Positions 7,866 through 51,529 of a stretch of DNA of 64,000 nt are shown in pieces (position 1 is the stretch's first letter; every line of letters starts with the position of its first letter). A program made the translations under genes and the position numbers. Source of the stretch: Nanobdellota archaeon (GTDB lineage: Archaea > Nanobdellota > Nanobdellia > Pacearchaeales > GW2011-AR1); assembly GCA_027334715.1 (NCBI GenBank), contig DAHWUG010000001.1, positions 15,324 to 79,323 on the forward strand, given 5' to 3'. The notes beneath the pieces are model-generated. The model saw only the letters and a program-made list of their open reading frames with translations, searched no databases and had not been told where the DNA came from.

Positions 7866-7866
7866 A

Positions 7867-8571
7867 ATGAAAGGCCAACATTCTGAATTAGTCAAAGAGC
7901 ATTTTGATATTAAATACAAAGGTTATGACAAATTAATAAAAAAGCTCATTCCTAATTATGAAAGAATGCATAGCTTAATACTAAAAAACTTGCGTTTTAA
8001 TAAAGGTATAAAAATTAAAGTTCTTGACTTAGGTATTGGAACCGGAAAAACTTCTTTGGAAATTTTTTTAAAATTTCCAAATGCTAAAATTGATGGTGTG
8101 GATATTTCTAAAAACATGATTAAACAAGGCAAGCAAAGACTTAGAAATTATCTTTCTAGGCTGAGTTTTATAGAACAAGATGTAGCAAAGCTTAGTTTAC
8201 AGGGGAAGTATGATACTGCTGTTTCTGTATTATGCATACATCACCTAAATTCCAAACAAAAACAGATATTATTTTCTAAAGTTTTTGATTTATTAAAGTG
8301 GAATGGAATATTTATTATAGCTGACATCGTAAAATTTGATTCCAAAAAAGAAACAGCAAAAAATGAAAGTAAATGGAAACATTTTTTAATAAAAAATTTA
8401 GGGAAAAAAGAAGGGCAATATTGGTTTGATAATTACCTTGAAGAAGACTTGCCAAGCTCTGTTCGAAACCAATTAACATGGCTAAAAAAAGCTTATTTTA
8501 AAGAAGAGAAAGAAATTTTTGAACATATGAATTATTCAGTATTTTACGGAAAGAAAACTATAAACTTCTAA
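7867..8571 (+). CDS. class I SAM-dependent methyltransferase embedded in the pilus operon
   Basis: 234 aa; motif I VLDLGIGTGKTS; motif II/post-I DGVDIS; its start lies 1 nt after the ATPase stop. Confidence 0.7.
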   Translation: MKGQHSELVKEHFDIKYKGYDKLIKKLIPNYERMHSLILKNLRFNKGIKIKVLDLGIGTGKTSLEIFLKFPNAKIDGVDISKNMIKQGKQRLRNYLSRLSFIEQDVAKLSLQGKYDTAVSVLCIHHLNSKQKQILFSKVFDLLKWNGIFIIADIVKFDSKKETAKNESKWKHFLIKNLGKKEGQYWFDNYLEEDLPSSVRNQLTWLKKAYFKEEKEIFEHMNYSVFYGKKTINF

Positions 8572-8624
8572 AGATTTATTAATTGTTTTTAATTATAGAT
8601 ATCATTGATAAAAAGTGGTGAAAA

Positions 8625-10784
8625 ATGCCCCCTCCAAAAGATATAGATGAAATTATTGAAAAATACAAAGGAAAGATAGAGAGTCAGCTGGACACTTATG
8701 AAGAAAGGGATGTTGATTACACTCAGGAATATGTAAAATTCAAGAAAGAAATGTCTCCCGAGATTTCAAGATATGAGCGCTGGGCAAAAAGCCTTGGAAA
8801 CATAATCAAACTGAAAATTTCCGAAAAAGATTCTGTAGTTGTCAAAAGAAATCTTAACATTGCACATCTTGACATTGAACCTCAGCAGTCAGTCACCCTT
8901 AGTGCTATGGCTTTCCTAAGCGTTCTTTTTCTTGGAGTTTTGATTTCTGTCGCATGGTTTCTCATATCCGGCTCTTTCCCAATTTTATTTTTCTTGCTTG
9001 TTATGATGTTCTGTTTTTTTGTGTTTTATTTTGTAAGCGGATATCCTGCAAGACTTGCAAATTCCTGGAGACTGAAAGCAAGCAGCCAAATGGTTCCTGC
9101 AATACTTTACATAGTTGTTTACATGAGGCATACATCAAACCTTGAAAGAGCTGTTGCATTTGCATCAGATCATCTTGAATATCCTCTTGCCCTTGACTTC
9201 AAGAAAATTTTTTATGATGTTCAAATCGGAAAATTTGCAACAATAAAAGACAGTCTTGACAATTATCTTGAAACATGGAGAGACTACTCAATTGAGTTCA
9301 TAGAATCATTTCATCTTATAGAGAACAGCCTGTTTGAGCCAGATGATGCAATGAGAATTCAGACATTGGAGAAATCATTGAGTGTTGTTCTTGATGGGGT
9401 TTATGAAAAAATGCTTAAATTTACTTATGAGGTAAAAAATCCCTTGACAAATGTTTACATGCTAGGAGTTGTTTTGCCAACTCTTGGTTTAGCTCTTTTG
9501 CCCCTGGCTTCTGCAATGTTAGGTGGAATGCTGACATGGGTTCATGTTTTTATCCTTTTTGATTTGATAATTCCATTTTTAGTTCTTTATCTGACAGATA
9601 AAGTTTTATTTTTAAGGCCGGGCGGAAACGGAGATTCAAGCCTTCTTGAGAAAAATCCATTATATTATAAATACAAAAACAAAAAGCCTTATTTCAAGGC
9701 ATTTTTCATTGCTTTCCCCTTTTTATTAATTGGATTATTGCCCTTCATTTTCCAGTTCACTCCCTTACCTCAGGCATTTGGCATGCCAAAAGATTTTACT
9801 TTTTCGCAGATTGGGCTTGGAATTCTGGGCGGAAATGCTAATTTCTTTGACTTCAGGACAAACGATGCAGGGGGGTTAGTCGGGCCATTTGGCGTAGGAG
9901 CCCTGCTTTTGAGCATATTGATCCCATTGAGCATTGCATTGTTCTTTTCAATTGTATATAAAGAGAAGACAAAAGAGCTTATAGTTGAAAGAAAGAAAAC
10001 AAACCAGCTTGAAGCTGAATTTAATAATTCATTATTCCAGCTTGGAAATACAATAGGAAATGGAACACCTCCCGAAATAGCATTTGGTAAAGTTGCAGAA
10101 GCTTCAAAAGGTCTGATTACAGAGGATTTCTTCAACAGAGTTAATTACAACATAAGGCAAATGGGCATGAGTATTGAAAAAGCACTTTTTGACTCAAAAA
10201 GAGGCGCTGTAATATACTATCCATCTAACTTAATTTCGACAAGCATGAAAATACTTGCTGAATCTTCCAAAAAAGGGCTGCAGATTGCAGCTTTGAGCTT
10301 AATGAGCATTTCAGAATATGTAAAAAACATGAACAAAGTAACTGCAAGGCTTAAAGACCTTTTGGCAGAAGTTATTTCTGACATGAAATCAAACATGTCT
10401 TTCCTTGCTCCCTTGCTTTCAGGAGTTGTTGTTGGACTTGCTGCCATGATAACATCTATTTTAGTCAAGATGGACATAATAAAATCTCTTGGAGGAAGTG
10501 TAGTAGCAAGCTTGGGAACTTTGGCAAATATAGTCAGCATATTTCAGGTCTCTGACATGATTCCCCCATATTTTCTGCAAGTAATCATTGGAATTTATCT
10601 TATTGAGATTGTTTTTATTTTAACCCGCGCTCTTGTTGTGATTGATTCCGGAGAAGACAAGCTTGAAAAAACAAGCAAGACGGGAAAAAATCTTACAAGT
10701 GCTATTCTTCTTTATGCAATAACTGCATTTTTGTCAATAATTGTCTTATTTGTTCTTGTGTCAATAGTTGTTGTCAGTAGTTAG
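8625..10784 (+). CDS. FlaJ/TadC-like polytopic membrane platform protein (T2SS-F domains)
   Basis: 719 aa; many TM segments with two cytoplasmic domains; lies between the ATPase and the pilins. Confidence 0.75.
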   Translation: MPPPKDIDEIIEKYKGKIESQLDTYEERDVDYTQEYVKFKKEMSPEISRYERWAKSLGNIIKLKISEKDSVVVKRNLNIAHLDIEPQQSVTLSAMAFLSVLFLGVLISVAWFLISGSFPILFFLLVMMFCFFVFYFVSGYPARLANSWRLKASSQMVPAILYIVVYMRHTSNLERAVAFASDHLEYPLALDFKKIFYDVQIGKFATIKDSLDNYLETWRDYSIEFIESFHLIENSLFEPDDAMRIQTLEKSLSVVLDGVYEKMLKFTYEVKNPLTNVYMLGVVLPTLGLALLPLASAMLGGMLTWVHVFILFDLIIPFLVLYLTDKVLFLRPGGNGDSSLLEKNPLYYKYKNKKPYFKAFFIAFPFLLIGLLPFIFQFTPLPQAFGMPKDFTFSQIGLGILGGNANFFDFRTNDAGGLVGPFGVGALLLSILIPLSIALFFSIVYKEKTKELIVERKKTNQLEAEFNNSLFQLGNTIGNGTPPEIAFGKVAEASKGLITEDFFNRVNYNIRQMGMSIEKALFDSKRGAVIYYPSNLISTSMKILAESSKKGLQIAALSLMSISEYVKNMNKVTARLKDLLAEVISDMKSNMSFLAPLLSGVVVGLAAMITSILVKMDIIKSLGGSVVASLGTLANIVSIFQVSDMIPPYFLQVIIGIYLIEIVFILTRALVVIDSGEDKLEKTSKTGKNLTSAILLYAITAFLSIIVLFVLVSIVVVSS

Positions 10785-10816
10785 GAACTACTTAAGAAAA
10801 AAACATTTATTAACTA

Positions 10817-10999
10817 TTGTTAATTTTATCGGGTATGCATGAAAAAAGGAGAAAAAAGGAAAAAAAAGGAATTGTTTCTGACTATTTACCTTGGCTACTA
10901 ATAGCCATTGCAATTCTGGTGATTCTTATGATAGCAATATTTGTGCTTAAAAACCAAGGAACATCTCTTATTGATAAATTAAAGGGGCTTTTTGGATAA
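10817..10999 (+). CDS. small pilin-like protein with class III signal
   Basis: KKEKKG then IVSDYLPWLLIAIAILVILMIAIFVL hydrophobic stretch. Confidence 0.4.
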   Translation: MLILSGMHEKRRKKEKKGIVSDYLPWLLIAIAILVILMIAIFVLKNQGTSLIDKLKGLFG

Positions 11000-11168
11000 A
11001 ATGCTAACAGAAGAGCAGCTGATAAAAATTATTCTGGGGGTTTTGGTTTTTGTAGCAGTTATTGTTGGAGTTTATCTTATCTTCAAGAACAATATTCTTG
11101 ATTTTTTTAATAATCTTGGCGGCAACGCAGGACAAACAGGAGGATTAATCTTGTCCTTGCTGAAATAA
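11000..11168 (+). CDS. small pilin-like/TM protein (55 aa, below the ORF-track cutoff)
   Basis: MLTEEQLIKIILGVLVFVAVIVGVYLIFKNNILDFFNNLGGNAGQTGGLILSLLK; ATG overlaps the previous stop (TAAAATG). Confidence 0.35.
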
Positions 11169-11169
11169 A

Positions 11170-11646
11170 ATGGACAAAAATGGATTTCTTCTTGCAGAAG
11201 AAACTCTGAAGATAGTAATTGCCGTGATTGCAATAGGATTCCTGGCCTATTTTCTTGTTTCACTTTATTTTTCTGCGAAGACATCATCACAATCAGAACA
11301 AGCTAAATCAACTTTGCCGTTTATCATGAATGCAATAAACTCCTCAAACCAGAGTGTGGATATTTACAATCCAAAAGGATGGTTAATATCAATATGGCCC
11401 CATTCAGTAACATCAGGAATAGGACCATTTAAATCAACTAACATAGAAATGCCAAACTTATGCAAAAATACAGGGTTGCAAACATGCATTTGCATATGTA
11501 GCTCAGACAGTGCAAGTAGTTGTGACAGTAGCGGAACTTGCATGGACAATCTTGGTTTTGGGGTAAAAGGAACTTTGATCAAAATAAACAATCCTCCTAT
11601 CACAGTTAACATTGACCAAAAAAATAAAATAATAAGCTTACAATAA
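11170..11646 (+). CDS. pilin-like protein, Cys-rich C-terminal domain
   Basis: MDKNG then FLLAEETLKIVIAVIAIGFLAYF (pilin-type N-terminus with Glu at +5/+6); CICICSSDSASSCDSSGTC. Confidence 0.6.
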   Translation: MDKNGFLLAEETLKIVIAVIAIGFLAYFLVSLYFSAKTSSQSEQAKSTLPFIMNAINSSNQSVDIYNPKGWLISIWPHSVTSGIGPFKSTNIEMPNLCKNTGLQTCICICSSDSASSCDSSGTCMDNLGFGVKGTLIKINNPPITVNIDQKNKIISLQ

Positions 11647-11648
11647 AA

Positions 11649-11750
11649 ATGGATCTAGATGAGATGATTAAATATGTAATATGGATTTTTTTTGCGATTA
11701 TCGCACTTTTAGGAATTTATTTTCTCCTGAAAAACATAGGAATAATGTAA
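11649..11750 (+). CDS. very small TM peptide (33 aa), possible minor pilin
   Basis: MDLDEMIKYVIWIFFAIIALLGIYFLLKNIGIM; tightly packed between pilin genes. Confidence 0.3.
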   Translation: MDLDEMIKYVIWIFFAIIALLGIYFLLKNIGIM

Positions 11751-11752
11751 AA

Positions 11753-12487
11753 ATGAAAATGATAAAAAGAAAAGACGGGGAATTAACAACACAGCAAATT
11801 GTCATCCTTATTGTCCTTATTGTAAGTTTTGTCATAATCCTTTTTTTATTGTTCAGGTTGAACCTTGGTGGAACAACAAGCGAGGAGATTTGTCATAATT
11901 CAGTTGTATTGAAAGGACAGTCGAGCATTACTTCAGGGTCATTGAACTGTAAGACAGATTATCTTTGCATTTCCGGAGGTGGAAAATGTCAGAGCTTTTC
12001 CGCATCAAATACAATGAAGGTACAACAAGGAAATAAAACACAAGTAATGAAAATTTTGGCAGATGAAATGTCTGCATGCTGGTATGAGTTTGGGGAAGGT
12101 CAAATTAATTATGCAAGCAGCACAATTACTGGAAATAAAGCATGTGCCTTATGCTCAATTGTGAACTTTGACACAAGCTTAAAGAACACTAATATATCCT
12201 ATGAGAATTTTTACAATTACTTAAGGACCACTAAAAAAACAGATTCACAGACTTACCTTCAATATCTTTATTCTACAAGTAATTTAACAGATTTCAATAA
12301 ATTTTACTTATCAGGATACCTCAATAATAACATAGACCCAAGTAAAGAATACTTTATCCTAACTGGCATATCAAAAAAGCCTGTTTGGGGATTTTTTGGA
12401 AGCACCCAGATTCCTGTAACAATTATGGAAAAAACAACCCAAAATTACAACACAATAGGATGCGATGAATTTTTGACAAAAGCCTAA
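11753..12487 (+). CDS. pilin-like protein (start trimmed relative to the ORF track)
   Basis: MKMIKRKDG then ELTTQQIVILIVLIVSFVIILFLLF; the ORF-track start at 11681 overlaps the upstream peptide in another frame. Confidence 0.5.
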   Translation: MKMIKRKDGELTTQQIVILIVLIVSFVIILFLLFRLNLGGTTSEEICHNSVVLKGQSSITSGSLNCKTDYLCISGGGKCQSFSASNTMKVQQGNKTQVMKILADEMSACWYEFGEGQINYASSTITGNKACALCSIVNFDTSLKNTNISYENFYNYLRTTKKTDSQTYLQYLYSTSNLTDFNKFYLSGYLNNNIDPSKEYFILTGISKKPVWGFFGSTQIPVTIMEKTTQNYNTIGCDEFLTKA

Positions 12488-12488
12488 A

Positions 12489-12941
12489 ATGATAAGAGGA
12501 AAAAGACAAAAAAAGAGGAATTTTTTTAACTATAATTTTCATCCAAAAAATTCTAAAGGGAATATCCTTACTGAAAATGTGATTTTTATTGTCCTTAACA
12601 TTGTTTTTATTTCTATTCTCTTGGTTTTTATTTTTGTAAAATCAGGAAGTGCTGCTGTTCTTGAGGAAAAATACGCAAAGGAAATTGCCCTTCTAATTGA
12701 TGAATCCCAACCAGGAATGACTATACATCTAAACATGCAGGATGCAATAGGCATCGCAAAAGGGAATAATATTGCCACTGCAGCAATAGTAAGAATAAAT
12801 AAAAATGTGGTTACTGTAAAGCTGAGAGGCAATGGTGGTTATAGCTATTCTTTTTTCAATGATGTCCAATTTGGTGATGGAAAATCAAATTATCATCCGG
12901 ATAACACAAACACCGGATTTGTTTTTATAATTGGGGGATAA
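12489..12941 (+). CDS. pilin-like protein
   Basis: basic N-terminus ending NSKG, then NILTENVIFIVLNIVFISILLVFIFV. Confidence 0.55.
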   Translation: MIRGKRQKKRNFFNYNFHPKNSKGNILTENVIFIVLNIVFISILLVFIFVKSGSAAVLEEKYAKEIALLIDESQPGMTIHLNMQDAIGIAKGNNIATAAIVRINKNVVTVKLRGNGGYSYSFFNDVQFGDGKSNYHPDNTNTGFVFIIGG

Positions 12942-13455
12942 AATGAAAAATAAAAAAGGAGCAGACAAAATACTTTCAGTGTACTGGTTTTTTATCCTCT
13001 TTTTAGTTGCAGCAGCCATAGTTTATATGGTAGCTTCTTTTTACGGAAAGCCTTATGATATAAGGGGCATTGAAGCGGGAATACTTGCAGACAGAGCAGC
13101 AGACTGCGTTTCTTATGCAGGTTACTTAAGGGATGGAGTTTTAAATTCTGATTTTCAACAAAACCTGCTTTCAAGATGCAATCTTAATTTTAATACAGAA
13201 GATGCATACAACTGGAATCAGCAAGGCCAATATTTTTTGGACATAAGCATTTACGATTTTAACTCTTATCCTAATTCGAATGCACTGCTTGAAGCTTCTG
13301 CAGGAAATCCCGATCTGAAGGATTTTTGCGGAGCTAAAGGAAATACAAACCCACTTTGCCTGCAACGGGAGTTTTACACTATAGACAAAAGTGGTAAGCA
13401 GTATGTAGTAAGAATAACATCTGTTGTAAGAAAAACCGAAAAAAATGTACAATAA
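12931..13455 (+). CDS. pilin-like protein
   Basis: MKNKKG then ADKILSVYWFFILFLVAAAIVYMVASF; 4 Cys in the globular part. Confidence 0.55.
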   Translation: MGDKMKNKKGADKILSVYWFFILFLVAAAIVYMVASFYGKPYDIRGIEAGILADRAADCVSYAGYLRDGVLNSDFQQNLLSRCNLNFNTEDAYNWNQQGQYFLDISIYDFNSYPNSNALLEASAGNPDLKDFCGAKGNTNPLCLQREFYTIDKSGKQYVVRITSVVRKTEKNVQ

Positions 13456-13981
13456 AATAAGAAAAACTAAGAAAGCGCAAATAGGGGAAACAATGACATG
13501 GGTATTTGCAACAATAATAATTATAGTCATACTTGTTATTTCAATATTTATTGCATCCCACTATTTGGGAAAAATAAAGCTGATTACAATGCCCACTTCT
13601 GGCCAGAGCTATGACCTTCCTATTGCGAAATCTTTTTATTCATATCTTTTAACAAAAAATGAATCAGGACAGACTGTTTATTCCCAGATTGAAAAAGACA
13701 AGAATCTTAATGATTTCGATGGCAATCTTTCCCTTGACTTATTCAATGGTCAAGAAAAAATTAAGACCTATCAGGGGTCAGGTATAAATTCCCCTCTTGT
13801 GTGGCTTGGTGCAATAAAAATATCATCTCAAAATCCAAATGGGATAGGGGTGGAAAACAAGTATTTTGGACCTCAAGATTTTGGCATTACTTCAAATAAT
13901 CTTCAATTTTATGAACTAATAAAAATAAATGAAAATGAGTCAGTCAGTCTTGTAGTTTCATCCTCTTCAAACGTAAAATGA
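13445..13981 (+). CDS. pilin-like protein
   Basis: RKTKKA then QIGETMTWVFATIIIIVILVISIFIA. Confidence 0.5.
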   Translation: MYNKIRKTKKAQIGETMTWVFATIIIIVILVISIFIASHYLGKIKLITMPTSGQSYDLPIAKSFYSYLLTKNESGQTVYSQIEKDKNLNDFDGNLSLDLFNGQEKIKTYQGSGINSPLVWLGAIKISSQNPNGIGVENKYFGPQDFGITSNNLQFYELIKINENESVSLVVSSSSNVK

Positions 13982-14283
13982 CAAAACTGATTAATAATAA
14001 AAAAGGAGATATACCGGTGACAATTCTTGTACTTGGTGTTGTTTTGATATGCATCCTTACTATCGCAAGCTTTTTTTTCGCATCATATCATGTAAATAAG
14101 AATTTTGATATAAGGATAATAAAAGAAATAAGTCTTGCAAAAGAGAAAATAGACTTTTATCAAAATGTAGGTGTTAGCAGAGACCAGGCAGACTCTTTTG
14201 TTGGAGTAAAAACAGACACTCAGGGAAAAAGATATCTTTATTACAATTGGAGCTCTATATCTGTAAGATACAACCTCCCTTGA
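13978..14283 (+). CDS. pilin-like protein
   Basis: NNKKG then DIPVTILVLGVVLICILTIASFFFA. Confidence 0.55.
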   Translation: MTKLINNKKGDIPVTILVLGVVLICILTIASFFFASYHVNKNFDIRIIKEISLAKEKIDFYQNVGVSRDQADSFVGVKTDTQGKRYLYYNWSSISVRYNLP

Positions 14284-14320
14284 CAATAACATTTTTAAAC
14301 AAAATAAACCTAAATTAAAT

Positions 14321-14668
14321 ATGGAAAGCAAAAGGGGCCAGGAGCTTAGCACCAATGCAATTATTATGATTGTCATTGGAATAATTGTGCTTGTTGTTCT
14401 TATTCTTGGCTTTACAATAGGCTGGGACAAGCTTCTTCCATTCTTTTCAACAAACAACGTGCAAAACATACAAACAACATGCAGTTCTGCATGCGCCACA
14501 GGAAATCAGTATGATTACTGCTCTTTACCAAGAACTTTGAAAGCATCTGACCTGCCTGGAAATCCTTCTAATGGCCAAGTTGTAGGAAATTGTACATTCT
14601 TTGCAACTAATCCCAACTATCAGAAGTATGGAATAGGTGTATGTGACACAATAACCTGCAGTTCTTAA
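14321..14668 (+). CDS. pilin with canonical archaeal class III signal (RG/QE), Cys-rich
   Basis: MESKRG then QELSTNAIIMIVIGIIVLVVLILGF; 9 Cys in 115 aa; candidate major pilin. Confidence 0.65.
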   Translation: MESKRGQELSTNAIIMIVIGIIVLVVLILGFTIGWDKLLPFFSTNNVQNIQTTCSSACATGNQYDYCSLPRTLKASDLPGNPSNGQVVGNCTFFATNPNYQKYGIGVCDTITCSS

Positions 14669-14712
14669 TTCTTATCTGAAATATTTTTAAAGAAACTTCC
14701 TCTTAAAGTGTA

Positions 14713-14823
14713 ATGGATTATGGATTTTCTGAAAGAAGGAACAAAAGAAAGAGCAAGAAAAAGGAAAACAGAAAGCATCCTTACAGAAAAGGCGGTGGGC
14801 ATAGGTCAATGGAAAAGAAATAA
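14713..14823 (+). CDS. tiny highly basic ORF (36 aa) inside the pilus locus, speculative
   Basis: MDYGFSERRNKRKSKKKENRKHPYRKGGGHRSMEKK; no homology recognised. Confidence 0.15.
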   Translation: MDYGFSERRNKRKSKKKENRKHPYRKGGGHRSMEKK

Positions 14824-14899
14824 TGAAGAATTTTAATATAAAGCCGAATGAATAAATTTTACTCGTGCATTTTATAAATTAGAATTACAATATCCTCTT

Positions 14900-15745
14900 A
14901 TGATAGAAATAATCTTCCTTTTTATACTGGGTCTTTTTTGGATTATTTTTGCAACTGTTCAGGATGTAAGAACAAAGGAAATAGCAAACTGGCTTAATTT
15001 TTCTCTTATAATCTTTGTTCTTGGATTCAGGTTCTTTTATTCCCTTTTTTCTGCAGGCAATTTCAGCTTTTTTTATCAGGGCCTTATAGGGCTTGTAATC
15101 TTCTCTGTTCTGGGAAATTTGTTTTATTACGGAAGAATGTTTGCAGGAGGAGATGCAAAACTTCTTATTGCCCTTGGTCCCCTAATCCCCCTTTCTGATG
15201 TTTTTTCAGTAAACTTTGGAAATTTTGTCATGTTCCTTCTTGTCTTCCTTTTTGCAGGAGCTCTTTATAGCATAACTGTCAGCGTGAGCCTTGGCATAAA
15301 AAACAGAAAGAAATTTGGAAAAGAGTTTAAGAATCAATTCAAAGAAAATAGAAAAATAATTATTTCTTTTTTAGTTCTTAGCATAATACTTATCATTTTA
15401 AGCTATTTAGACGGATTATTTTTGTACCTGGGAATACTGACTTTTATCCTGCCTTATCTTTACATTTATGCTAAAAGTGTCGACGAAATTTCAATGATAA
15501 AGAATGTTTCAGTTTCTGCGCTTAAAGAGGGGGACTGGCTTTATCATAATATTAAAATTGGCTCCAAAACAATAAAGGCAACATGGGATGGATTGAACAT
15601 GAGAGAAATAAATTTGCTCAGAAAAAAACGCAAGAATGGGAGAGTCAGGATCAGGGCAGGAGTTTTTTTCACGCCTGTTTTCTTCATAAGCTACCTTGTC
15701 TTCTTTTATTTTTGGTATATTGGATTAAGGTATTCTTTTTGGTAG
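14900..15745 (+). CDS. A24-family prepilin/prearchaellin peptidase (PibD/FlaK-like)
   Basis: 281 aa polytopic; TVQDVRTKEI and GGDAKLLIALG catalytic Asp motifs. Confidence 0.75.
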   Translation: MIEIIFLFILGLFWIIFATVQDVRTKEIANWLNFSLIIFVLGFRFFYSLFSAGNFSFFYQGLIGLVIFSVLGNLFYYGRMFAGGDAKLLIALGPLIPLSDVFSVNFGNFVMFLLVFLFAGALYSITVSVSLGIKNRKKFGKEFKNQFKENRKIIISFLVLSIILIILSYLDGLFLYLGILTFILPYLYIYAKSVDEISMIKNVSVSALKEGDWLYHNIKIGSKTIKATWDGLNMREINLLRKKRKNGRVRIRAGVFFTPVFFISYLVFFYFWYIGLRYSFW

Positions 15746-35668: not shown

Positions 35669-37516
35669 ATGAGGTTTAGAAGGGGTGAAAATAGTAAAAA
35701 AGGTCAAGTTACTGTTTTCATAATCATTGCAGTTATGATTGTTTCGCTGGCTCTAGGATATCTTTTTTTAAGAAATTCTGTTGCAACACAAAGCATTCCT
35801 GTTGACATACGGCCTGTTTATGATAGCTTTGTTTCCTGCTTGCAGGATAATACCCGGACAGGAATTAGTGTTTTGGAAAGTCAGGGCGGGTACATAAATC
35901 TCCCTGCCTTTGATCCTGGAAACACATACATGCCTTTTTCTTCTCAGCTTAATTTCGCAGGAACGCAGATCCCTTATTGGTATTATATATCAGGAAACAA
36001 CATCCCAAAAACACAGATTCCTTCTGTCAGCGATATGCAGACTTCATTAGGTAATTTTATCTCCCAAAAAATAAGAAGCTGTGACTTAAGAGATTATTAC
36101 TCCCAGGGATTTGTTGTTACAATGGGAGATCCAAGCAGCTCTGTCAATATAAAATCAAATGAAGTTGATGTTAGCTTATCAATGCCTTTAACTATACAAA
36201 AAGGAAATGAAACAGCTGTTGTGAACACACATAAAATTGCAGTAACCTCCCCTCTTGGAGAATTGTACAATTCTGCGCAGACTGTTTATAATGATGAACA
36301 AAAAAACATGTTTTTGGAAAATTATACCATGGATGAATTAATGACTTATGCTCCTGTCGATGGAGTTAAGATTACATGCGGACCTTTGATTTGGAATGCA
36401 AATGATATTTTTGACACACTGCAAAATGCAATAACTGCAAACACTCTTGAGCTAAAATCAAAAGGGGCAACAAACGACTATTTTGCACTACATCTGCCTG
36501 TGAATGATAATGTAAGATTTTTGACCTCCCAGAATTGGTCAAACAGTTTTGAAGTCTCTCCAGCAGACGGGCCGATATTAACAGCTACGCCTGTAGGAAA
36601 TCAGCAGGGTCTCGGAGCTCTTGGATTCTGCTATGTTCCTTATCATTTTGTGTACAACATAAAATATCCTGTTCTTATCCAGATTTACAATCAGAATGAA
36701 ATTTTCCAATTCCCATTTGCAGTTGTCATACAGGGAAACAATCCAAGACAGCCTCTTTCAGGAACAGCTGTTTCTGAAGTTAACTCTCCTTTATGCCAGT
36801 ACAAAAATACACCGGTGCAGATAACTGCTGTTGACAGAAACTTAAATCCAATTGCAAACGCAACCATTTCCTATGAATGCGTTCAGCAAGAATGTTCAAT
36901 AGGTATGACAGACAATTCAGGGGCACTCACTGCAAATTTCCCACAATGCGTAAATGGCTATGTAATTGCACGAGCTCCCGGCTTTAAAGATACAAAATAT
37001 CTTTTTTCAACAGTATCTCAAGGTTCTCTTGAAATGATAATGGACAAACTTTATCCAACAAATGTTCAGCTTCTTGTTGATGGAAAACCATACAGCGGGA
37101 CGGCAATGATAACATTTGATTCAGATTATTCAACACAGACACTTGTCTGGCCTAACCAGAAAACAGTTAATCTTGGAGAGGGCAATGAAAACATAACTGT
37201 TCAGGTTTACATGAATACATCAATAACAATACCTGCAACAACAACACAGCAGTGCGTAACTGTTCCCAATGGAATTCTTGGAATTGTCGGATTGACACGG
37301 CAAAACTGTTTTGAAGTAAATGTTTCCCAGCAGATTATTTCAAATGCTCTTGCAGGAGGAGGAAATACAGAGAATTATTTCCTTGAATCAGACTTATCAC
37401 AAGGCAAAACAGTTCAGATAAATGCACCCAGCTTACCTACTCCAAAGACAATTGGTGACATCCAGAATAATTACAATCTATTTGACCAGAATCAGATAGC
37501 AGTCAACTTAGTATAA
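35669..37516 (+). CDS. large secreted protein with pilin-type class III signal peptide (KKG/Q)
   Basis: MRFRRGENSKKG then QVTVFIIIAVMIVSLALGYLFL; about 600-aa Cys-containing extracellular part; its stop abuts the giant gene. Confidence 0.6.
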   Translation: MRFRRGENSKKGQVTVFIIIAVMIVSLALGYLFLRNSVATQSIPVDIRPVYDSFVSCLQDNTRTGISVLESQGGYINLPAFDPGNTYMPFSSQLNFAGTQIPYWYYISGNNIPKTQIPSVSDMQTSLGNFISQKIRSCDLRDYYSQGFVVTMGDPSSSVNIKSNEVDVSLSMPLTIQKGNETAVVNTHKIAVTSPLGELYNSAQTVYNDEQKNMFLENYTMDELMTYAPVDGVKITCGPLIWNANDIFDTLQNAITANTLELKSKGATNDYFALHLPVNDNVRFLTSQNWSNSFEVSPADGPILTATPVGNQQGLGALGFCYVPYHFVYNIKYPVLIQIYNQNEIFQFPFAVVIQGNNPRQPLSGTAVSEVNSPLCQYKNTPVQITAVDRNLNPIANATISYECVQQECSIGMTDNSGALTANFPQCVNGYVIARAPGFKDTKYLFSTVSQGSLEMIMDKLYPTNVQLLVDGKPYSGTAMITFDSDYSTQTLVWPNQKTVNLGEGNENITVQVYMNTSITIPATTTQQCVTVPNGILGIVGLTRQNCFEVNVSQQIISNALAGGGNTENYFLESDLSQGKTVQINAPSLPTPKTIGDIQNNYNLFDQNQIAVNLV

Positions 37517-37517
37517 A

Positions 37518-40500
37518 ATGAAAAAAGAGAAAATGCAGAAAAAAGGGATTTTAACTAGTAAGAAATTTAACACTGCTACAATAATAGGATTATCTTTATT
37601 TTTAACATTGTTTTTTATATCAATAATCTCTGCACAGGGTTCTTATATAAGATCTGCCCCTGCATATACATACGGCTACCAGGCAGGTTCATTTTTTGGA
37701 TTGCAGAATTATCCACAGGTTGATTCAAACATGTGCAACAACAGACAGGATTTTATCCTGCAGGTTGACCCTCTTGGCTGCACGCCAAGCGTTGTAACAA
37801 GTGACCTTCTTGAGCAGCAGAATGTCGCTGTTTTCTGTCCTATTGTTGCAACGCAATTAAATCCGTTGATAAGCGTCAGCGCAATAAACAACATGGTTTT
37901 GGCGAACCCGCCAGGCAGCAGTTTTTCAAATAATATTGCAGGAGTGAATTATTTCCCATCACAAGCAGCACTTGGGCAGTACAATCCATCAATAAGCTCG
38001 CCTTATCTTGGAAATATAGGCTATGCAACAATTATCTTAAGGCAGCAGCCAAATGAGTCGGCAATGCCTGAATTTGTCCAGGGAAATTTGACAGCGCAGA
38101 TAAGTTATAATATAAAGAATGCATGGGGAGTTGGAAGTGCAAGCTATTTCCTTCCCCAACTTTCCGATACTGATTTCAACAAAAATATAAATGCTTACAG
38201 TTTCTGGAATGGAAAAGGATTCATAAGATTGGACAGCGCAGATAACACAAAAGCTGTCATTTCTGTTTATTCAGGAGTTAGCGGAGCTGCAGGTTCAAGC
38301 ACTGCAAAGACAAAAGTTGCAACATTTAATCTTAAAACAGGAGAAACATCTTCTGACATTTACCTTCCGGGATTTGCTTTGTGCATGGGTGGCTTAAAAG
38401 TTCATCTCCAGGATTTGGAAAACCCAGATACAACTGCAAAGCTGATTGTTGATTCAAGCGTAACTGACTTAAGAAAAGGGGATACTTTCCTTGATGGTAG
38501 GTGCACGGTTAAATCAATATCAAAACAGGGAATAAACCAAAATGTCCAGATTTTATGCAATGAAGACCAGCAGGAAAGCAATTTTCTGCTTGGAATAAAT
38601 CCCAAGGTAAACTTAAGTATTAACGGAACAACAAAAACTTACAGCGTTGGCGATTATTTGTTTGATTATCTAAATCCAAAAGACCAGCAGCATTATTCTG
38701 TTTATCTTGGTTTCATAGGAAATAATGGAAAAGCAAATCTTGATTCAGACATTTACATAAGAACTCTTTTAATACCAACAAAAAACGGCGGAACAGAAAC
38801 AAAATTGACCAATGACGAAATTTCATATGTTGCAGGATATGATGAAGCCGTTAAAGGCTCTGATTTAAAGCAAGGAATTTCCGGCCAAATAGTTGATGGT
38901 GGCAAAGCAGTGTTTGCAACAATCAGCCAGATATTAAGGGGGGGTCTTAGTGGAAAATATCTAAGTTATCTTCAATATGGTTCTTCTGATACAAATTTTC
39001 CAACTGATGGGCAAACGAAACTCAGGATAGTGGGTTATGCAGGAGTTTATGACACAGATCTTTCGCAACTTCCAAAACCAACTCAAGATTCTTATAATAG
39101 TGCAATGAGTGATTACCAGACAATAATAAACAATTACGCTGGTGAAACCTATCCATCAGGAAGCTCTGTAACAGAAGGACAACAGGCACTTCAGCAGGCA
39201 ATAGATCTTGCAAATCAATTTGGGCAGAAAAGAACAGTTCTTCAGCTATGCCAACAATATTCACAAAGTTACGGAGCAGATTCAGGCATTCCGCCTATAT
39301 GCAGTGATAATGCACTTCTGTCAAGCACATCTGTTTCAGAGCAAAGCGTCATTATCAACGGGCAATCACACGTAATTTCTTTTTACGGAATAACACAGCC
39401 AACCTTTGACCAATACGGTGTTATTATTTCTGTACAAAATCCTGACGGAACTTATCGCGATCCTGCTGACTTACAAAAAGGAGATGTTCTTTATCTTACA
39501 CAGGAAACAGATTATGCTTATACGACTGGCTCTATTTTTAATGGCAACCGCATTACAGTTTATTACAGATATGATAATACAGCTGGCTGGCAATGGTCTG
39601 TTGATAAATCAGTATGGATGCCTGTAAGAACAGTAATAATTTCAGGAGGAAAAAATCCTGGAGAACTAACATCTTCTGAGCAAATAAGTATGATCAATCA
39701 GCTTAATAAAAATGGTCAAGGAAGTAAAACATTTGATGATGGAAAACAATTGCTGACAGATAGCGGTGCTTCACCACAGACAAATGAGCAATACATTCAG
39801 CTTGCTCACCTTACAGCAGACACGGCAACTTTCAATACTTATCTTGGAACAGGAACATTCACAAGTGCTTTGCCACAGCAAAAAATTAAGCTTGGAGCTG
39901 TGGATACATTTGGAAGCCAGTATACCTTTGCACTGCAAAAAATAAATCTGCAGCAGGTTGCAAAAGTTTCCATAGAGCCTGACATAAATTATGCCCATTC
40001 AAATGCATCATTCAGTTTTAAAATAGGAATTGAGAAAAGAAATATTCAGCTTACTCCAAATGAAACAAAGCAAAGAATAAAGGATTTGAATAATACAATA
40101 AACAAATGGCAAAGCTTGCAGAATTCACTTAATAGTGTAGTCAAAGTAGGAAAAGCTGCATGCATTATTACAGAAGGAACATTGCTTGTTAAGAATTTCA
40201 TTGCAAATTTAGGAGGTGCAGGAGCTGCAAGGCAATTGGCAATGAGAAGTCCGGGGGGATGGGATGACCAATGTCAGAAAGCAGTAACAAGCAATTCCCA
40301 GATTAATGGAAAAGGGCCATTTACAACTGTTGAAAACTGTCTTCAGGCAAATTCACCTGCTGTTGATGCTTCTGTAAATGCATATGACGCAGCTCTTAAA
40401 GCTCAAAATGATAATATACAGACACTAAGCCAAGGATTACCAACTACGACTGTTGCAGGAGAGAAAGTTACTGATAATGCCCAGCTTTTCGATAAAATAT

Positions 40501-43500
40501 CTCCTTCTGTAATAGGAAGCTTGTCAAGCAGTTTGAATGGAGTTTTTCCAGATGGAATACCTACTGGAAACGGAAATCAAAAAATTAACATTAATGATAT
40601 AACAAAACAAATAAATTCAAACACTGCAACGCTTTCACAAATGGAGCAGCTGCAGCTAAATATAGGATTGCTGAATTCAAATGACCAAACTGTTGCATCA
40701 ATTGCAAAGAATCAGGTACAGACAATACTTACCCAGATTAACAGCAACTATCAGGCAACTGCACAGCAGACAGCTGCTAATCAAGCATCACAAAATGATA
40801 TTGATAATGCACATGCAATTGTTTTGGCAGGACCAAATGCCAAAGAGCTGATATACTATGGTTCTACAGCCAAAGATGGAAATAAATTTGGAATTGCAGC
40901 AGGCACACCTGTTGCAGTAATTGTATTTCAAAACCAGCAATATACTCTTGAATTAACTCCTGTAGCAGGAAGCGGGAATACCTATGCAATAAAAAATGTT
41001 TATGATGACAGCACAGGAAATAATTTAGACCATGAAAATGCAATTTATGCAGAAATAATAAAAACAATTTCTGACTTTAAAGCTTACACTACAGACTCTT
41101 ACAAAAATCAGTATCTTAACCCAACTCTTCAATATTATGAAACAGGGCAGTATGCAGGATTGCCTGCAATTGTTCCATTTGATCTGCAAAATGGCTGGTA
41201 TGCTGTTATAAAATCAAATCTTCCAATTTTAGGAGGGCTGACTTCTTATGATGCATCTGGAAGAGTTTCTGCCTTTTATGTGTGCAATGTTGGCCCAAAT
41301 GGGAGGGAAGAAGACATGGGAGGGGATGACATATGCGGACAATTTGTTCCAGGAACAAATCAGCCACCTGTCTTTACAGGGCTTGATTCTTCACAATCAT
41401 TAGAATTAATGAATAAAGCTACAGATGCAATTAAGCAAGCATCTTCTATTAAACAAAAAACAGGAATTGTACTTATTAATGGGCAAAAAATCCCTATTGG
41501 GCAACCATCAACAGGCACGCCTGTAATACAATGCGAGGATTTCATGTCTCCCAGCGATTGCAATATCTTATTCAATGTATGTGATCCTTTTGTATGCCCT
41601 TCAAGCAGATGCAATCTCGGGGGAGCTTACCCTGTTCAGGATGTTATCCAGTCCGGAATTATAGGAAGCCTTGCACTTTGTTATCCAAATTTTCCGCAGG
41701 TAAAAATACCAATATGCATTTCAGGGGTAAATGCAGGATTGCAGGGTTATATCAGCGTTCTTAAATCATACCAGCAGTGTCTGCAAACAAGCCTTAATAC
41801 AGGGCAGCAGGTTGGTATTTGTAGTGAAGTAAATAGCATTTACCAATGCCAGTTTTTCTGGAAGCAGGGAATACCTATAATAAATTATGCCCTTCCAAAA
41901 ATAGCTGGAAGCGTTTTAGGACAGAATTCTGGAACAGGCGGAGGGGAGTATTTAGCAGGCACAGATGCTGTTACAAATGCACAAAAATCAATTGATTATT
42001 TTAGCCAGTTTTATGCTGCAAATTCGTACAAAGCATTCCAGGAAAGGTCAACAGAGGGTGTAGGAGATGCTGTCTGCAAAAACTTTATCTCATTGACAAC
42101 GCCAAATGGAGGAGACTTATTTAATACATTAATAACTCCCGATTCACCTGTGCAATTTTACGGGCAGTTTGATGAAGCTCCTTACACAACTGCAACAAAT
42201 CCCCCAACGTCTCAGTATAATGTATTTTACCACATTTATGCGGGAACAGATTTCCCAGCTTATTATCAAGTTTATCTGAAAGGCTCTCAGAGCTCATTTT
42301 ACCAGGATACATCTGTAAGCAGGGTTGTTGCAACAGGTGTTGTTCCTATAGGACAGTTTACAACAAACACGAGTGTTTTCACAGCCCCATCTGGATATCA
42401 GCAATTATGCATTGTTGTCAACGGACAGGAGCAATGCGGATTCAAACAGGTAACAACTGAATTTGGAGTAAATTACCTGCAGCAGCAGTATTTATCTTCA
42501 CAGGCAAAACAGACAAACATAACTTCTGAGGCAAATTGTGTTTCTGGAACTCCAAGCGTTTACAATTTATTGAATCCAAATGTGCAAGCAGGTGTTACAA
42601 ATACAATAAATCCTGCAATTTACAATCAGGGAATAATAAGAATATGCTCTACAAATAGCCCAGGTCAGGGAACAGATGCAAACTGGAATACTCAAAATGC
42701 ACGATGGCAAAAAGTTGGCTATTGTGATACACCAAATATTGGGTGTTGGCTTGATACACAAAGCGTCACTAATGTTATAAAAGACACAAACATTGCAAAT
42801 TCAACTTTGCGGGCAACAAGCTCACAATTTGTCCAGCAATTGCAATCACAAAATGGATTCTTTGATGACCCCGGGTTTGCTTCATACATATCTTCCTTAA
42901 ATACATTGAAAGATCAAAAACAAAATCTTCAGATAATAAGCTCAATAACACAAAATCTCTCAAAAGCTTCTCTAAGCAATCAGAAAGCAGAGCTTTATTT
43001 AATAAGAGGAAATGCATATACTTCTGTTGCAATCCAGGGATTTGATGCTGCTTCAGCTGGTTCAAAATCCTTGTGTGTTACATGTCTTCAGGCAGGAAAT
43101 GATTGGTGCGGAAGTTCTTCATCAGCACAATGTGTTCCTTCTGGAACATGCAAAATAAGTGATACAATAAAAGCTGCTTATGGTTATTCTGGAATAAGCC
43201 TTTCTAATGCAACAGACAGATGCTCTGTTTTCACCAATGGAATAAAAACATCATCAGGCACTGCAGCAAACGGAGGTTCATGCACTGTAAACTCTGATTG
43301 CCAGTCAAACTATTGCGATACTGCTAATGGTATTTGCACTGATTCTTCAACAATCATTGGTTCTACAGGAAATAAAAATCCAACTGGTGTAATAAATACA
43401 CAAACGCAACAAATTTTTGGAGCTAGTTATCCTATTTTTGAGTTTCACACTGCCAGAATTTATGATATTATAACTTCTTCAGATTTATTATATACATTCT

Positions 43501-44675
43501 ACCAAAATAATTGGTATTGGTGCATAATGTCTAGTGGTTGTCCAATTACTTCTGGAACACCTATACCGGACAACACTTACTGGAAACTTGCCGGAAATCC
43601 AGGAACTTCTGTATCATTAAGTGATAATAATCTTAATTTCTTAACATCTCTTGGAACTGTTCATACTTATTCAGGCGGATTAGCATTATTAATACAAAGA
43701 ACAATTACAAATCAGGAAGGAGGTGGACTTAAACCATTTGGGTTTACAATATTAAGCTCTGATGATAAATTGTCCACAAGTAATGTTGACTATACCCCTG
43801 ATGGAATTTTTACAATTCATACTCCTAATAAATATGATTTTTATCTTATTCATGCTCAAAGCACATGGCAGTGGAATACTTATTCTGGGCAGCCACTTGA
43901 TTCTTGGCCTTATGTTACATCTACTTCATCTAATGGACAAAATCCAACTACTGCTGATTTAAGTTTAATACAAAGTTTAGTGGGGCTAAATGGACTTAGT
44001 GGAGCTCAAATAATCTTTGGGGGCAGTGCAATTTCATCTTCAAATTCAGGAACAGGAAATGCAATAGGCACATGTTCCAGCCAGACAAGCTGCCAGCAAT
44101 TATTGGGAAATGAAATAATAAGATTGGCACAGCAAGTGAAACAGGAGAATAAAAATATTGTTGATTCAAATATTCAAGCACAGACAGGAGCAAAATCATT
44201 TGAATGCCTTGCATTACAAATTGCCATGGTTGAAAGCACTATCCAACAATGTAACCCTCTCCAGCAGAATAACAATCCGTTATATTGTGAAGGAACTCCT
44301 GATGAAGTATATGCTAACACAAATAATGGGGAAAGTAGTTTTGGAATTATGCAAATAAATACAGCTGGTCAGTATAGTCATTGTGGAGACTCATGGAAAG
44401 ATGGGACCTCATTGTCTTCTGATTTAACCCAGTGCAAAATTCAGCTTTCAAATCTTGATACAGATATAAAAGAAGGATTAAACATTTTAGTTAGTGGGTC
44501 TAATGGCGGTCCAAAAACATTTAGCTGTCAAGGAGCACAAGATCAAACATACAGCGGGTGGACATATGCAATAAGAAATTACAATGGCTGGGGATGTCAG
44601 AATCCAGGTTATGTAGACAAAGTTATTAATGACAAACAATTAGTTGCTAACCTTTTCCCCTCTGTTTGCGGTTGA
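37518..44675 (+). CDS. giant secreted protein (2385 aa) with C-terminal family-1 lytic transglycosylase (SLT) domain
   Basis: N-terminal signal/TM; S/T/N/Q-rich repetitive beta regions; C-terminus carries AMVES (catalytic Glu-Ser), GIMQI and AIRNYNGWG motifs of the SLT fold plus many Cys. Confidence 0.8.
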   Translation: MKKEKMQKKGILTSKKFNTATIIGLSLFLTLFFISIISAQGSYIRSAPAYTYGYQAGSFFGLQNYPQVDSNMCNNRQDFILQVDPLGCTPSVVTSDLLEQQNVAVFCPIVATQLNPLISVSAINNMVLANPPGSSFSNNIAGVNYFPSQAALGQYNPSISSPYLGNIGYATIILRQQPNESAMPEFVQGNLTAQISYNIKNAWGVGSASYFLPQLSDTDFNKNINAYSFWNGKGFIRLDSADNTKAVISVYSGVSGAAGSSTAKTKVATFNLKTGETSSDIYLPGFALCMGGLKVHLQDLENPDTTAKLIVDSSVTDLRKGDTFLDGRCTVKSISKQGINQNVQILCNEDQQESNFLLGINPKVNLSINGTTKTYSVGDYLFDYLNPKDQQHYSVYLGFIGNNGKANLDSDIYIRTLLIPTKNGGTETKLTNDEISYVAGYDEAVKGSDLKQGISGQIVDGGKAVFATISQILRGGLSGKYLSYLQYGSSDTNFPTDGQTKLRIVGYAGVYDTDLSQLPKPTQDSYNSAMSDYQTIINNYAGETYPSGSSVTEGQQALQQAIDLANQFGQKRTVLQLCQQYSQSYGADSGIPPICSDNALLSSTSVSEQSVIINGQSHVISFYGITQPTFDQYGVIISVQNPDGTYRDPADLQKGDVLYLTQETDYAYTTGSIFNGNRITVYYRYDNTAGWQWSVDKSVWMPVRTVIISGGKNPGELTSSEQISMINQLNKNGQGSKTFDDGKQLLTDSGASPQTNEQYIQLAHLTADTATFNTYLGTGTFTSALPQQKIKLGAVDTFGSQYTFALQKINLQQVAKVSIEPDINYAHSNASFSFKIGIEKRNIQLTPNETKQRIKDLNNTINKWQSLQNSLNSVVKVGKAACIITEGTLLVKNFIANLGGAGAARQLAMRSPGGWDDQCQKAVTSNSQINGKGPFTTVENCLQANSPAVDASVNAYDAALKAQNDNIQTLSQGLPTTTVAGEKVTDNAQLFDKISPSVIGSLSSSLNGVFPDGIPTGNGNQKININDITKQINSNTATLSQMEQLQLNIGLLNSNDQTVASIAKNQVQTILTQINSNYQATAQQTAANQASQNDIDNAHAIVLAGPNAKELIYYGSTAKDGNKFGIAAGTPVAVIVFQNQQYTLELTPVAGSGNTYAIKNVYDDSTGNNLDHENAIYAEIIKTISDFKAYTTDSYKNQYLNPTLQYYETGQYAGLPAIVPFDLQNGWYAVIKSNLPILGGLTSYDASGRVSAFYVCNVGPNGREEDMGGDDICGQFVPGTNQPPVFTGLDSSQSLELMNKATDAIKQASSIKQKTGIVLINGQKIPIGQPSTGTPVIQCEDFMSPSDCNILFNVCDPFVCPSSRCNLGGAYPVQDVIQSGIIGSLALCYPNFPQVKIPICISGVNAGLQGYISVLKSYQQCLQTSLNTGQQVGICSEVNSIYQCQFFWKQGIPIINYALPKIAGSVLGQNSGTGGGEYLAGTDAVTNAQKSIDYFSQFYAANSYKAFQERSTEGVGDAVCKNFISLTTPNGGDLFNTLITPDSPVQFYGQFDEAPYTTATNPPTSQYNVFYHIYAGTDFPAYYQVYLKGSQSSFYQDTSVSRVVATGVVPIGQFTTNTSVFTAPSGYQQLCIVVNGQEQCGFKQVTTEFGVNYLQQQYLSSQAKQTNITSEANCVSGTPSVYNLLNPNVQAGVTNTINPAIYNQGIIRICSTNSPGQGTDANWNTQNARWQKVGYCDTPNIGCWLDTQSVTNVIKDTNIANSTLRATSSQFVQQLQSQNGFFDDPGFASYISSLNTLKDQKQNLQIISSITQNLSKASLSNQKAELYLIRGNAYTSVAIQGFDAASAGSKSLCVTCLQAGNDWCGSSSSAQCVPSGTCKISDTIKAAYGYSGISLSNATDRCSVFTNGIKTSSGTAANGGSCTVNSDCQSNYCDTANGICTDSSTIIGSTGNKNPTGVINTQTQQIFGASYPIFEFHTARIYDIITSSDLLYTFYQNNWYWCIMSSGCPITSGTPIPDNTYWKLAGNPGTSVSLSDNNLNFLTSLGTVHTYSGGLALLIQRTITNQEGGGLKPFGFTILSSDDKLSTSNVDYTPDGIFTIHTPNKYDFYLIHAQSTWQWNTYSGQPLDSWPYVTSTSSNGQNPTTADLSLIQSLVGLNGLSGAQIIFGGSAISSSNSGTGNAIGTCSSQTSCQQLLGNEIIRLAQQVKQENKNIVDSNIQAQTGAKSFECLALQIAMVESTIQQCNPLQQNNNPLYCEGTPDEVYANTNNGESSFGIMQINTAGQYSHCGDSWKDGTSLSSDLTQCKIQLSNLDTDIKEGLNILVSGSNGGPKTFSCQGAQDQTYSGWTYAIRNYNGWGCQNPGYVDKVINDKQLVANLFPSVCG

Positions 44676-44711
44676 TTGATTATGATTCTAAAGCTTTTTA
44701 TAGAGATAAAA

Positions 44712-49216: not shown

Positions 49217-49217
49217 T

Positions 49218-50909: not shown

Positions 50910-50942
50910 GCATTAGTATAGAAAGATTATTATTTAAAGTTT

Positions 50943-51491: not shown

Positions 51492-51529
51492 ATAATCTTT
51501 GTTATATCAATGTTTATCTATTTTTATAA

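Follow-up and report, generated by a model that had tools for sequence, protein, structure and literature searches.

The subject of this analysis is a pair of adjacent genes on contig DAHWUG010000001.1 of a Nanobdellota archaeon; the whole stretch of DNA that we analysed is 64 kb long and is referred to as the window. The upstream gene (gene 1) encodes a protein with an archaeal class III (prepilin-type) signal. The downstream gene encodes a very large, putatively secreted protein, which we call the giant and which ends in a domain predicted to belong to the lytic transglycosylase (LT) family SLT. A first-pass annotation made from the sequence had described the two genes as co-oriented and separated by a single nucleotide and had read them as a candidate module for the attack on a bacterial host or prey. 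The open reading frames (ORFs) agree with the description: both are intact and run in the same direction, and the junction between them reads TAA-A-ATG with a spacer of 1 nt. The coordinates of all features are listed in Table 1.

Gene 1, the giant and their locus

FlaFind-type rules define a class III signal by a short charged N-terminus, a [KR]-G/A site and a hydrophobic helix, and we found all of these in gene 1. Its N-terminus reads MRFRRGENSKKG before and QVTVFIIIAVMIVSLALGYLFL after the predicted cut, giving the cleavage motif KKG/QVTVFIIIAVMIVSLALGYLFL. In an alignment of 56 homologues the residues G12 and Q13 are invariant, the N-terminus KRG/QVTIFIIIA is conserved (consensus KRGQVTIFIIIA) and the mean column identity is 63%. 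An A24 prepilin peptidase is encoded within a type IV pilus-like locus elsewhere in the window, so that processing of the gene 1 product by this peptidase is plausible. The signal proposed in the first-pass annotation is supported. The same annotation had called the protein pilin-like, which holds for the signal peptide only. Type IV pilins are small (~100-250 residues), have the pilin fold and are encoded alongside assembly genes, whereas gene 1 encodes 615 residues and is separated by 20 kb from the pilus-like genes, and neither a pilin family nor a pilin structure was matched by its product.

Homologues of gene 1 are numerous and similar in length: 1739 were found at E ≤ 1e-3, with ~610 residues each and identities of 50-85%, and none of them has a Pfam domain. 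For gene 1 itself there was no match in PDB or NCBIfam, and the Pfam scan returned only a sub-threshold Big_1 match at residues 381-426. A copy that is 100% identical (P0125) is present on ENA and Logan contigs which end inside the giant, and among the species representatives Ca. Pacearchaeota SPRUCE 657 (L011, JBEKXS01) comes nearest, with 85% identity. We take the gene 1 product to be a class-III-signal protein with a large, presumably extracellular part, belonging to a very conserved family.

To describe the surroundings of the pair in other organisms we used a scan with one genome per GTDB species. Relatives of gene 1 occur in 451 species-representative genomes, and 80 gene 1 loci were fetched. 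The giant follows directly after gene 1 in every fetched locus with enough downstream DNA; synteny of the pair had been suggested as a check. In these loci 50 giant ORFs are intact, with lengths of 1664-2678 residues. Six apparent exceptions are due to frameshifts, N-gaps or one intervening ORF, and the giant could still be found there by tblastn. The flanks are constant as well: S3Ae lies upstream of the module in 60 of 61 loci and TFIIB lies downstream in 45 of 45. A gene for a small protein with two transmembrane (TM) helices precedes gene 1 on the same strand in at least 49 of the 70 loci in which 600 nt or more of upstream sequence were available (tblastn). The 74-residue copy in the window aligns with its positional counterparts in L004 (64% identity) and L006 (37% identity); searches of Pfam, NCBIfam and PDB sequences gave no match for it, and it is possibly the third member of the module. 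Because the giant and the S3Ae/TFIIB flanks are constant across loci, we conclude that the three-gene module is a vertically inherited core feature at a fixed site, of which only the tip is exchanged, and that it is not a mobile weapon island.

The signal peptide and the Cys content of the giant (52 overall, ten of them in the last 204 residues) point to an extracellular location. According to the hydropathy scan it has a single N-terminal hydrophobic segment, with no other predicted membrane helix and no C-terminal anchor. The KKG at its own N-terminus was considered as a second class III signal and was ruled out, as the Gly is followed by charged residues and homologues do not conserve the motif. 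No record with exactly the sequence of the giant was found in a look-up. More than 150 homologues of 1800-3700 residues were found, and 120 listed ones were used for the coverage and tail counts below. All 120 have bit scores above 1000 and align with the giant over residues ~50-650 and ~750-1850, which we refer to as the trunk. The intervening residues ~650-750 and everything past ~1850 are variable.

Full-length alignments of subsets of 25 and 34 giants contain dozens of invariant Cys, Gly and Pro residues in the trunk, part A included. The invariant columns are densest between C1339 and Y1478, with the sequence CEDFMSPSDCN...GGGEY, and the identity of the trunk core across species is 40-80%. 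The trunk has no relative in Pfam, NCBIfam or among PDB sequences. An AlphaFold2 (AF2) model of residues 1195-1850 was only partly confident (predicted local distance difference test, pLDDT, 66.5; predicted TM score, pTM, 0.36), and a Foldseek search with it gave only generic Ig/FnIII-like sandwich matches, which came from the confident beta-sandwich parts. Residues ~1335-1542 were modelled as low-confidence helices (AF2 <50) despite showing the highest conservation, and no relatives of known function were detected for them. We found no basis for the 'multi-hundred-nm' dimension that the first-pass annotation had given to the protein.

The C-terminal domain and the tails of orthologues

The three motifs from which an SLT fold had originally been proposed are all present in the giant: AMVES at residues 2236-2240, GIMQI at 2276-2280 and AIRNYNGWG at 2351-2359. 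The two direct checks suggested along with them failed to recover the family. Pfam SLT and GEWL gave no match at E ≤ 1, neither for the whole giant nor for its last 258 residues, and a Foldseek search of the tip model against PDB gave none either. Likewise there was no PF01464 match at E ≤ 0.01 for the 204-residue tip domain and no phmmer match for it in PDB.

Comparisons based on profiles gave a different result. Only four relatives of the tip were found by the word-indexed search, whereas the exhaustive profile search returned 438 cluster representatives at E ≤ 1e-3, in most cases located at the C-terminus of ~2000-residue proteins. A BLAST search of the giant against the 120 listed homologues yielded ~40 with a domain aligned to residues 2185-2385. 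We aligned 38 of the tip domains and found E58 (Glu2239 of the giant), G95, Y174 and G176 to be invariant, with M97, Q98, I99 and N175 conserved in at least 90%; 18 of the 38 match PF01464, the best at 2e-15. The set was then split into a divergent subfamily of 16 sequences that includes the window copy (A8) and a canonical group of ten (A9). All ten A9 sequences but only 4 of the 16 in A8 match PF01464 directly. HHalign aligned A8 with A9 at a probability of 99.5% (E 2.1e-23), so that the Glu residues of AMVES and MMQES coincide and GIMQIN is matched with GLMQI, and Glu2239 is also invariant within the A8 alignment. When the tip profile was compared with PDB, only lysozymes and Slt70 were matched, weakly.

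Homology of the tip to members of PF01464 is thus established indirectly, by profile-profile comparison and transitively. As far as sequence comparison goes, the tip is a divergent GH23/SLT-like lysozyme-fold domain with its predicted catalytic Glu intact. The proposed SLT-type homology stands through the profile-profile comparison and the invariance of the Glu in 38 of 38 domains, and the lysozyme-like fold is a prediction from it; a direct PF01464 match of the window copy is the part that did not hold. The A8 subfamily differs by a Cys-containing insert of ~17-20 residues (NPLYCEG...) between motif I and motif II, and this is probably why the direct hidden Markov model (HMM) match is missed. 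Together with the five potential disulfides and the missing HMM match, the insert sets the window tip apart from known GH23/PF01464 enzymes (Slt70, MltC/E/F, EtgA, GEWL). The predicted chemistry could be that of either a transglycosylase, with a 1,6-anhydro product, or a hydrolase.

The tails of the orthologues differ from each other to a large extent. Our local profile detected an SLT-like domain in 53 of the 120 listed homologues, with very few exceptions at the very end of the protein; P0094 and the giant of L040 are two cases in which the domain is housed in variable slot 1. Precomputed PF01464 annotation is available for 27 of the 120, and most of the 53 positives carry no Pfam call. For the giants of species-representative genomes the local profile was positive in 21 of 50, and Pfam identified SLT in nine and M15_4 in two of the 49 complete ones, with amidase_3, VanY, amidase_2, glucosaminidase and PT-HINT occurring once each. 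Among individual homologues, Pfam detected an SLT-like domain with VanY in P0012, amidase_2 in P0057, amidase_2 with M15_4 in P0120, SLT with DUF1615 and amidase_3 in P0080, and M10 with SLT in P0116. Further tails hold an OmpA-type (peptidoglycan-binding) domain (P0109), DUF2272 (P0019) or an FGE-sulfatase with a GDSL lipase (P0124). The closest full-length relative, P0010, combines an SLT-like domain with PT-HINT and an unassigned C-terminus, and PT-HINT was also found in P0015. For M23 and trypsin-like tail domains there is precomputed annotation only.

Nearly all of the recognisable tail domains act on or bind different parts of bacterial peptidoglycan (PG). This is our strongest argument that murein is the target, as had been claimed from the tip of the window copy: VanY, M15_4, amidase_2, amidase_3 and glucosaminidase occupy the same position in orthologues. 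A further recurring element is the W-x-W module of ~220 residues, which jackhmmer found in the tails or slot 1 of 52 of 121 giants and which is present as a half copy at residues 640-746 of the window giant. It has no Pfam match and is a shuffled accessory module that may bind substrate.

Some observations concern single loci. The unassigned C-terminus of P0010 (L004:10001-18286) is a domain of ~300 residues beyond PT-HINT with no Pfam match, and a Fic-domain gene and a PIN-domain gene follow (L004:18451-19446), a layout similar to that of polymorphic toxins. P0004 (L088), named 'M15 family metallopeptidase, partial [Patescibacteria group bacterium]' at NCBI, was considered as a bacterial fusion and ruled out: the ORF lacks its N-terminal part, lies on a contig of only 1665 bp and resembles the SLT-like plus VanY tail of the DPANN giant P0012. 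Its bacterial label is probably a binning artefact. Bacterial labels were also encountered for two gene 1 loci, Bacillota for L020 and Patescibacteria for L076.

The pilus-like locus and other features of the window

The genes around the module are archaeal informational genes (TFIIB, Gins51, S3Ae, eIF2-alpha, RadA, tRNA-splicing endonuclease, SRP54 and FtsY), and the window has a GC content of ~35%. Homologues of both genes of the pair come from metagenome-assembled genomes (MAGs) with the labels Pacearchaeota, Woesearchaeota or Nanoarchaeota. By its gene content the source of the window is a Pacearchaeota-type DPANN archaeon, in agreement with the archaeal origin assumed in the first-pass annotation. 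No mur or other murein-synthesis domains were seen among the ~50 window ORFs scanned, a sample of 64 kb that cannot settle the matter for the whole genome.

Table 1. Positions of the module, of the pilus-like locus and of other features in the window (residue numbers are those of the respective protein).
Feature	Position	Strand	Remarks
Type IV pilus-like locus	5583..15745	+	Complete-looking
T2SSE-family ATPase	5583-7865	+	
Methyltransferase	7867-8571		Within the pilus-like locus
10-TM platform-like protein	8625-10784	+	
Five small pilin-like ORFs	11170-13981	+	Class-III-like N-termini resembling that of gene 1
A24 prepilin peptidase	14900-15745	+	PF01478 match 3.8e-10
74-aa protein, two predicted TM helices	35353..35577	+	Just upstream of gene 1; hydropathy scan
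Gene 1, 615 aa	35669..37516	+	Translation; in-frame TTG upstream at 35612
Putative prepilin-peptidase site K-K-G12/Q13, then hydrophobic helix aa 14-34	35702..35770	+	Predicted cleavage
Giant, 2385 aa, putatively secreted	37518..44675	+	ORF translation; large 'lytic transglycosylase' family of Pacearchaeota/Woesearchaeota
N-terminal Sec-type signal or anchor (MKKEKMQKKG...FFISIISA/QG)	37518..37637	+	Hydrophobic segment aa 16-34; predicted cleavage
Trunk part A, aa ~50-650, conserved	37665..39467	+	Aligned in 113-120 of 120 homologues
Variable slot 1, aa 640-746	39435..39755	+	Half copy of the W-x-W module; coverage only 33-46 of 120 homologues
Trunk part B, aa ~750-1850	39765..43067	+	Aligned in ~99-120 of 120; helical stretch, beta-sandwich domains, Cys-rich core
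Most conserved trunk stretch, aa ~1335-1542	41520..42143	+	CEDFMSPSDCN...GGGEY; Cys-rich with hydrophobic segments
W-x-W tail module, aa 1956-2175	43383..44042	+	Two motifs; recurs among giants
Divergent SLT/GH23-like lysozyme-fold domain, aa 2182-2385	44061..44672	+	10 Cys
Glu2239 codon (AMVES)	44232..44234	+	Predicted catalytic acid; invariant in 38 of 38
tRNA-Leu(TAG)	44711-44796	-	
LAGLIDADG homing-endonuclease-like ORF, 238 aa	44733-45449	-	Between the giant and TFIIB
Second cluster of signal-peptide or TM proteins	48782-58546		No assigned function
1411-aa protein of the second cluster	52482-56717	-	Sub-threshold Big_3_3 and sigma70_r4-like matches

The pilus-like locus is linked to the tip domain through one of the four closest tip relatives. 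This protein (P0002, L087:1352-2536, on a groundwater DPANN contig) is the positional orthologue of the 174-residue pilin-like ORF at 12931-13455 of the window and contains the SLT-like domain as an insert of ~220 residues. The N-terminal 60 residues of the two proteins are 47% identical and the C-terminal 111 residues 31%, and the gene order around them is kept through the A24 peptidase, a HIT protein and an OB-fold protein. Several further proteins of ~360-390 residues (P0245, P0248 and P0259) match the tip profile across the whole stretch that P0002 matches. Judged by its domains, P0002 would in effect be a murein hydrolase built into a pilin-like surface protein with a class III signal. 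The arrangement fits surface display, but it is no demonstration of a filament made of gene 1 product and giant.

The free-standing LAGLIDADG ORF behind the giant overlaps the tRNA-Leu gene with its 3' end by ~64 nt and has no equivalent at the same position in L004-L006. In the second cluster the neighbours of the 1411-residue protein are 563, 182, 303 and 555 residues long, and in L004 a similar unannotated cluster follows RNase Z.

Function of the module and comparison with known systems

We think it rather likely that the module is a surface device of Pacearchaeota and Woesearchaeota in which the giant displays a murein hydrolase outside the cell. The giant would be exported by Sec and, without a membrane anchor of its own, would be retained at the surface by the gene 1 product, which would be processed by the A24 peptidase and be N-terminally anchored or pilin-like. 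The 2-TM protein might help to retain the giant. The C-terminal domain would then cut MurNAc-GlcNAc (N-acetylmuramic acid to N-acetylglucosamine) bonds locally in the sacculus of a contacted bacterium, which could loosen the wall for attachment or access, or free muropeptides. In orthologues the tip would be exchanged for enzymes that cut other bonds of murein, and because of this exchange we consider the tip type to be probably matched to the wall chemistry of the partner. Several points weigh against such a surface device. Searches with Pfam, PDB, Foldseek and NCBIfam detected no homologue with a known function for either the trunk or gene 1, the window copy of the tip has no direct match in Pfam, NCBIfam or PDB sequences, and about a third to half of the orthologous tails contain no recognisable domain. 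We infer export, processing, anchoring, substrate and biological purpose, and the anchoring and display steps are purely conjectural. A partner bacterium, the activity of the tip and expression are presumed from the genes, and that the archaeon has no murein is presumed as well, murein synthesis having been judged from the 64-kb window.

There are several other possible explanations for the same genes. The giant could be shed as a bacteriolysin or scavenger that digests the walls of live or dead bacteria, for competition or for the harvest of amino sugars and amino acids. It would then have no role in attachment, and gene 1 would be unrelated or a secretion helper. The missing membrane anchor is in line with this, as is the resemblance of P0010, with PT-HINT and its unassigned C-terminal domain, to polymorphic toxins; secreted archaeal PG hydrolases do kill bacteria (PMC12352652), and the PG of dead bacteria has been proposed as an amino-acid source for Pacearchaeota (PMC11537232). 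However, a diffusible enzyme needs neither a conserved 1800-residue trunk nor a strictly co-inherited, translationally coupled partner, and the tip domain is also found inserted in pilin-like, surface-filament proteins. We regard a shed enzyme as unlikely, if still worth serious consideration. The trunk and gene 1 could also be structural, forming the archaeon's own surface layer or a cell-cell junction, with the tip as a mere accessory for binding to glycans of foreign or environmental origin (murein, chitin or extracellular polymeric substances, EPS) or for making room in them. The fixed site among core informational genes, the seemingly universal presence in the lineage, the extreme conservation of gene 1, the Ig-like sandwiches as the confident parts of the trunk and the many tails with no recognisable enzyme would all suit an envelope component. 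S-layer proteins, however, usually evolve fast, whereas the trunk core is 40-80% identical across species, and the recognisable tail domains are overwhelmingly murein-specific enzymes, among them peptidases and amidases, which would serve no purpose on chitin or EPS; a purely structural function is in our view very improbable.

In bacteria, SLT domains are normally those of housekeeping autolysins, and the giant might by analogy serve the upkeep of the archaeon's own wall, if that wall were murein-like or otherwise contained GlcNAc. We can hardly credit this explanation. The scanned window ORFs contain no murein-synthesis domains, Pacearchaeota and Woesearchaeota are treated as murein-less in the literature (PMC8204110), and the pseudomurein-making classes supply only two of the surveyed archaeal PG-hydrolase homologues (PMC12352652). 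Furthermore the tail enzyme classes differ between close relatives, which would be unexpected for the maintenance of a conserved wall of its own.

The surface-device reading can be extended to a host-contact organelle that is universal in Pacearchaeales and Woesearchaeales and consists of a stalk, a core and interchangeable tips. The pilus-like machinery would assemble the gene 1 protein into a stalk carrying the giant, the Cys-rich core (residues ~1335-1542) would insert into or bridge the bacterial envelope once the tip has opened the murein, and the range of bacteria that are parasitised would depend on the type of tip (glycosidase, amidase, endo- or carboxypeptidase, HINT-toxin). Taken jointly these steps are a long shot, and we would be surprised to see all of them hold. 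If they did, the module would be the first molecular handle on archaeon-on-bacterium episymbiosis.

Large LT proteins of these lineages have been described before. Castelle et al. 2021 (PMC8204110) reported fam00969, proteins of up to 3000 residues with a murein-like LT domain, as a Pacearchaeota/Woesearchaeota-specific module; they proposed attachment to or degradation of bacterial walls and cited earlier sightings (Rinke 2013, Castelle 2015). The same argument was made for Woesearchaeota by Vigneron et al. 2022 (PMC9723730) and for Pacearchaeota in PMC11537232, where some genomes were noted with GH23 'absent'. For haloarchaeal PG hydrolases the killing of bacteria was demonstrated experimentally, and diverse PG hydrolases were noted in Nanoarchaeota (PMC12352652). 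Both the large LT protein family and its bacterial-wall reading are thus already published (PMC8204110, PMC9723730). The giant agrees with this family in size, lineage and the homology of its trunk to LT-bearing proteins, and several of its homologues in Pacearchaeota and Nanoarchaeota MAGs are named 'transglycosylase SLT domain-containing protein'. The assignment to fam00969 is one by description, on lineage, size class (to ~3000 residues), a C-terminal LT-type domain and the functional proposal. Unlike the published family, the window copy has a tip of a divergent subfamily missed by Pfam SLT, and the partner with a class III signal, the S3Ae-TFIIB locus and the alternative tail enzymes are not described in the fam00969 papers. 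In a non-exhaustive literature search we found no description of the Pfam-invisible SLT subfamily, of the partner genes, of the fixed locus or of the tip polymorphism including PT-HINT.

Polymorphic toxins and 'evolved' delivery proteins of bacteria (PT-HINT toxins, Rhs/CdiA-type proteins, VgrG with PG-hydrolase tips) can be likened to the giants by description, as they combine a long conserved trunk with a variable C-terminal enzyme tip. The PT-HINT domains of P0010 and P0015 and the several giant tips that are PG hydrolases add to the likeness. However, none of the known trunk domains (Rhs, CdiA, VgrG or others) was found in the giant, and its locus is a fixed core-genome site and not a mobile island. 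The window giant has no PT-HINT, and there is no recognisable immunity gene downstream, where tRNA-Leu and the LAGLIDADG ORF come next. Wall-piercing lysins (phage tape-measure and tail-tip proteins, T7 gp16, VirB1 of type IV and EtgA of type III secretion systems, FlgJ) show no homology to the trunk, and unlike them the giant would act on the wall of another organism from the archaeal surface. Nanohaloarchaeota have SPEARE proteins (Hamm et al. 2019, PMC6642349) and predatory Omnitrophota have giant wall-degrading proteins (bioRxiv 10.1101/2023.11.21.568195), which are reportedly also very large surface proteins with degradative domains and a proposed role in cell contact, in ultrasmall cells that depend on a host or prey on others. 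They belong to other lineages and differ in domain content, the likeness is one of description, and the hosts of nanohaloarchaea are archaea and not bacteria.

The question whether any DPANN archaea live on bacteria is still open, and the giants are the main genomic argument that some do. The published concept is left unchanged by the case of the window. Our counts indicate that standard Pfam-type screens miss the tip in a large share of the family (27 against 53 of 120), which bears on surveys that call the LT domain absent from some Pacearchaeota (PMC11537232). With the trunk and its partner as the core and a tip that varies among enzymes for different bonds of murein, the pattern looks like an adaptation to different bacterial walls.

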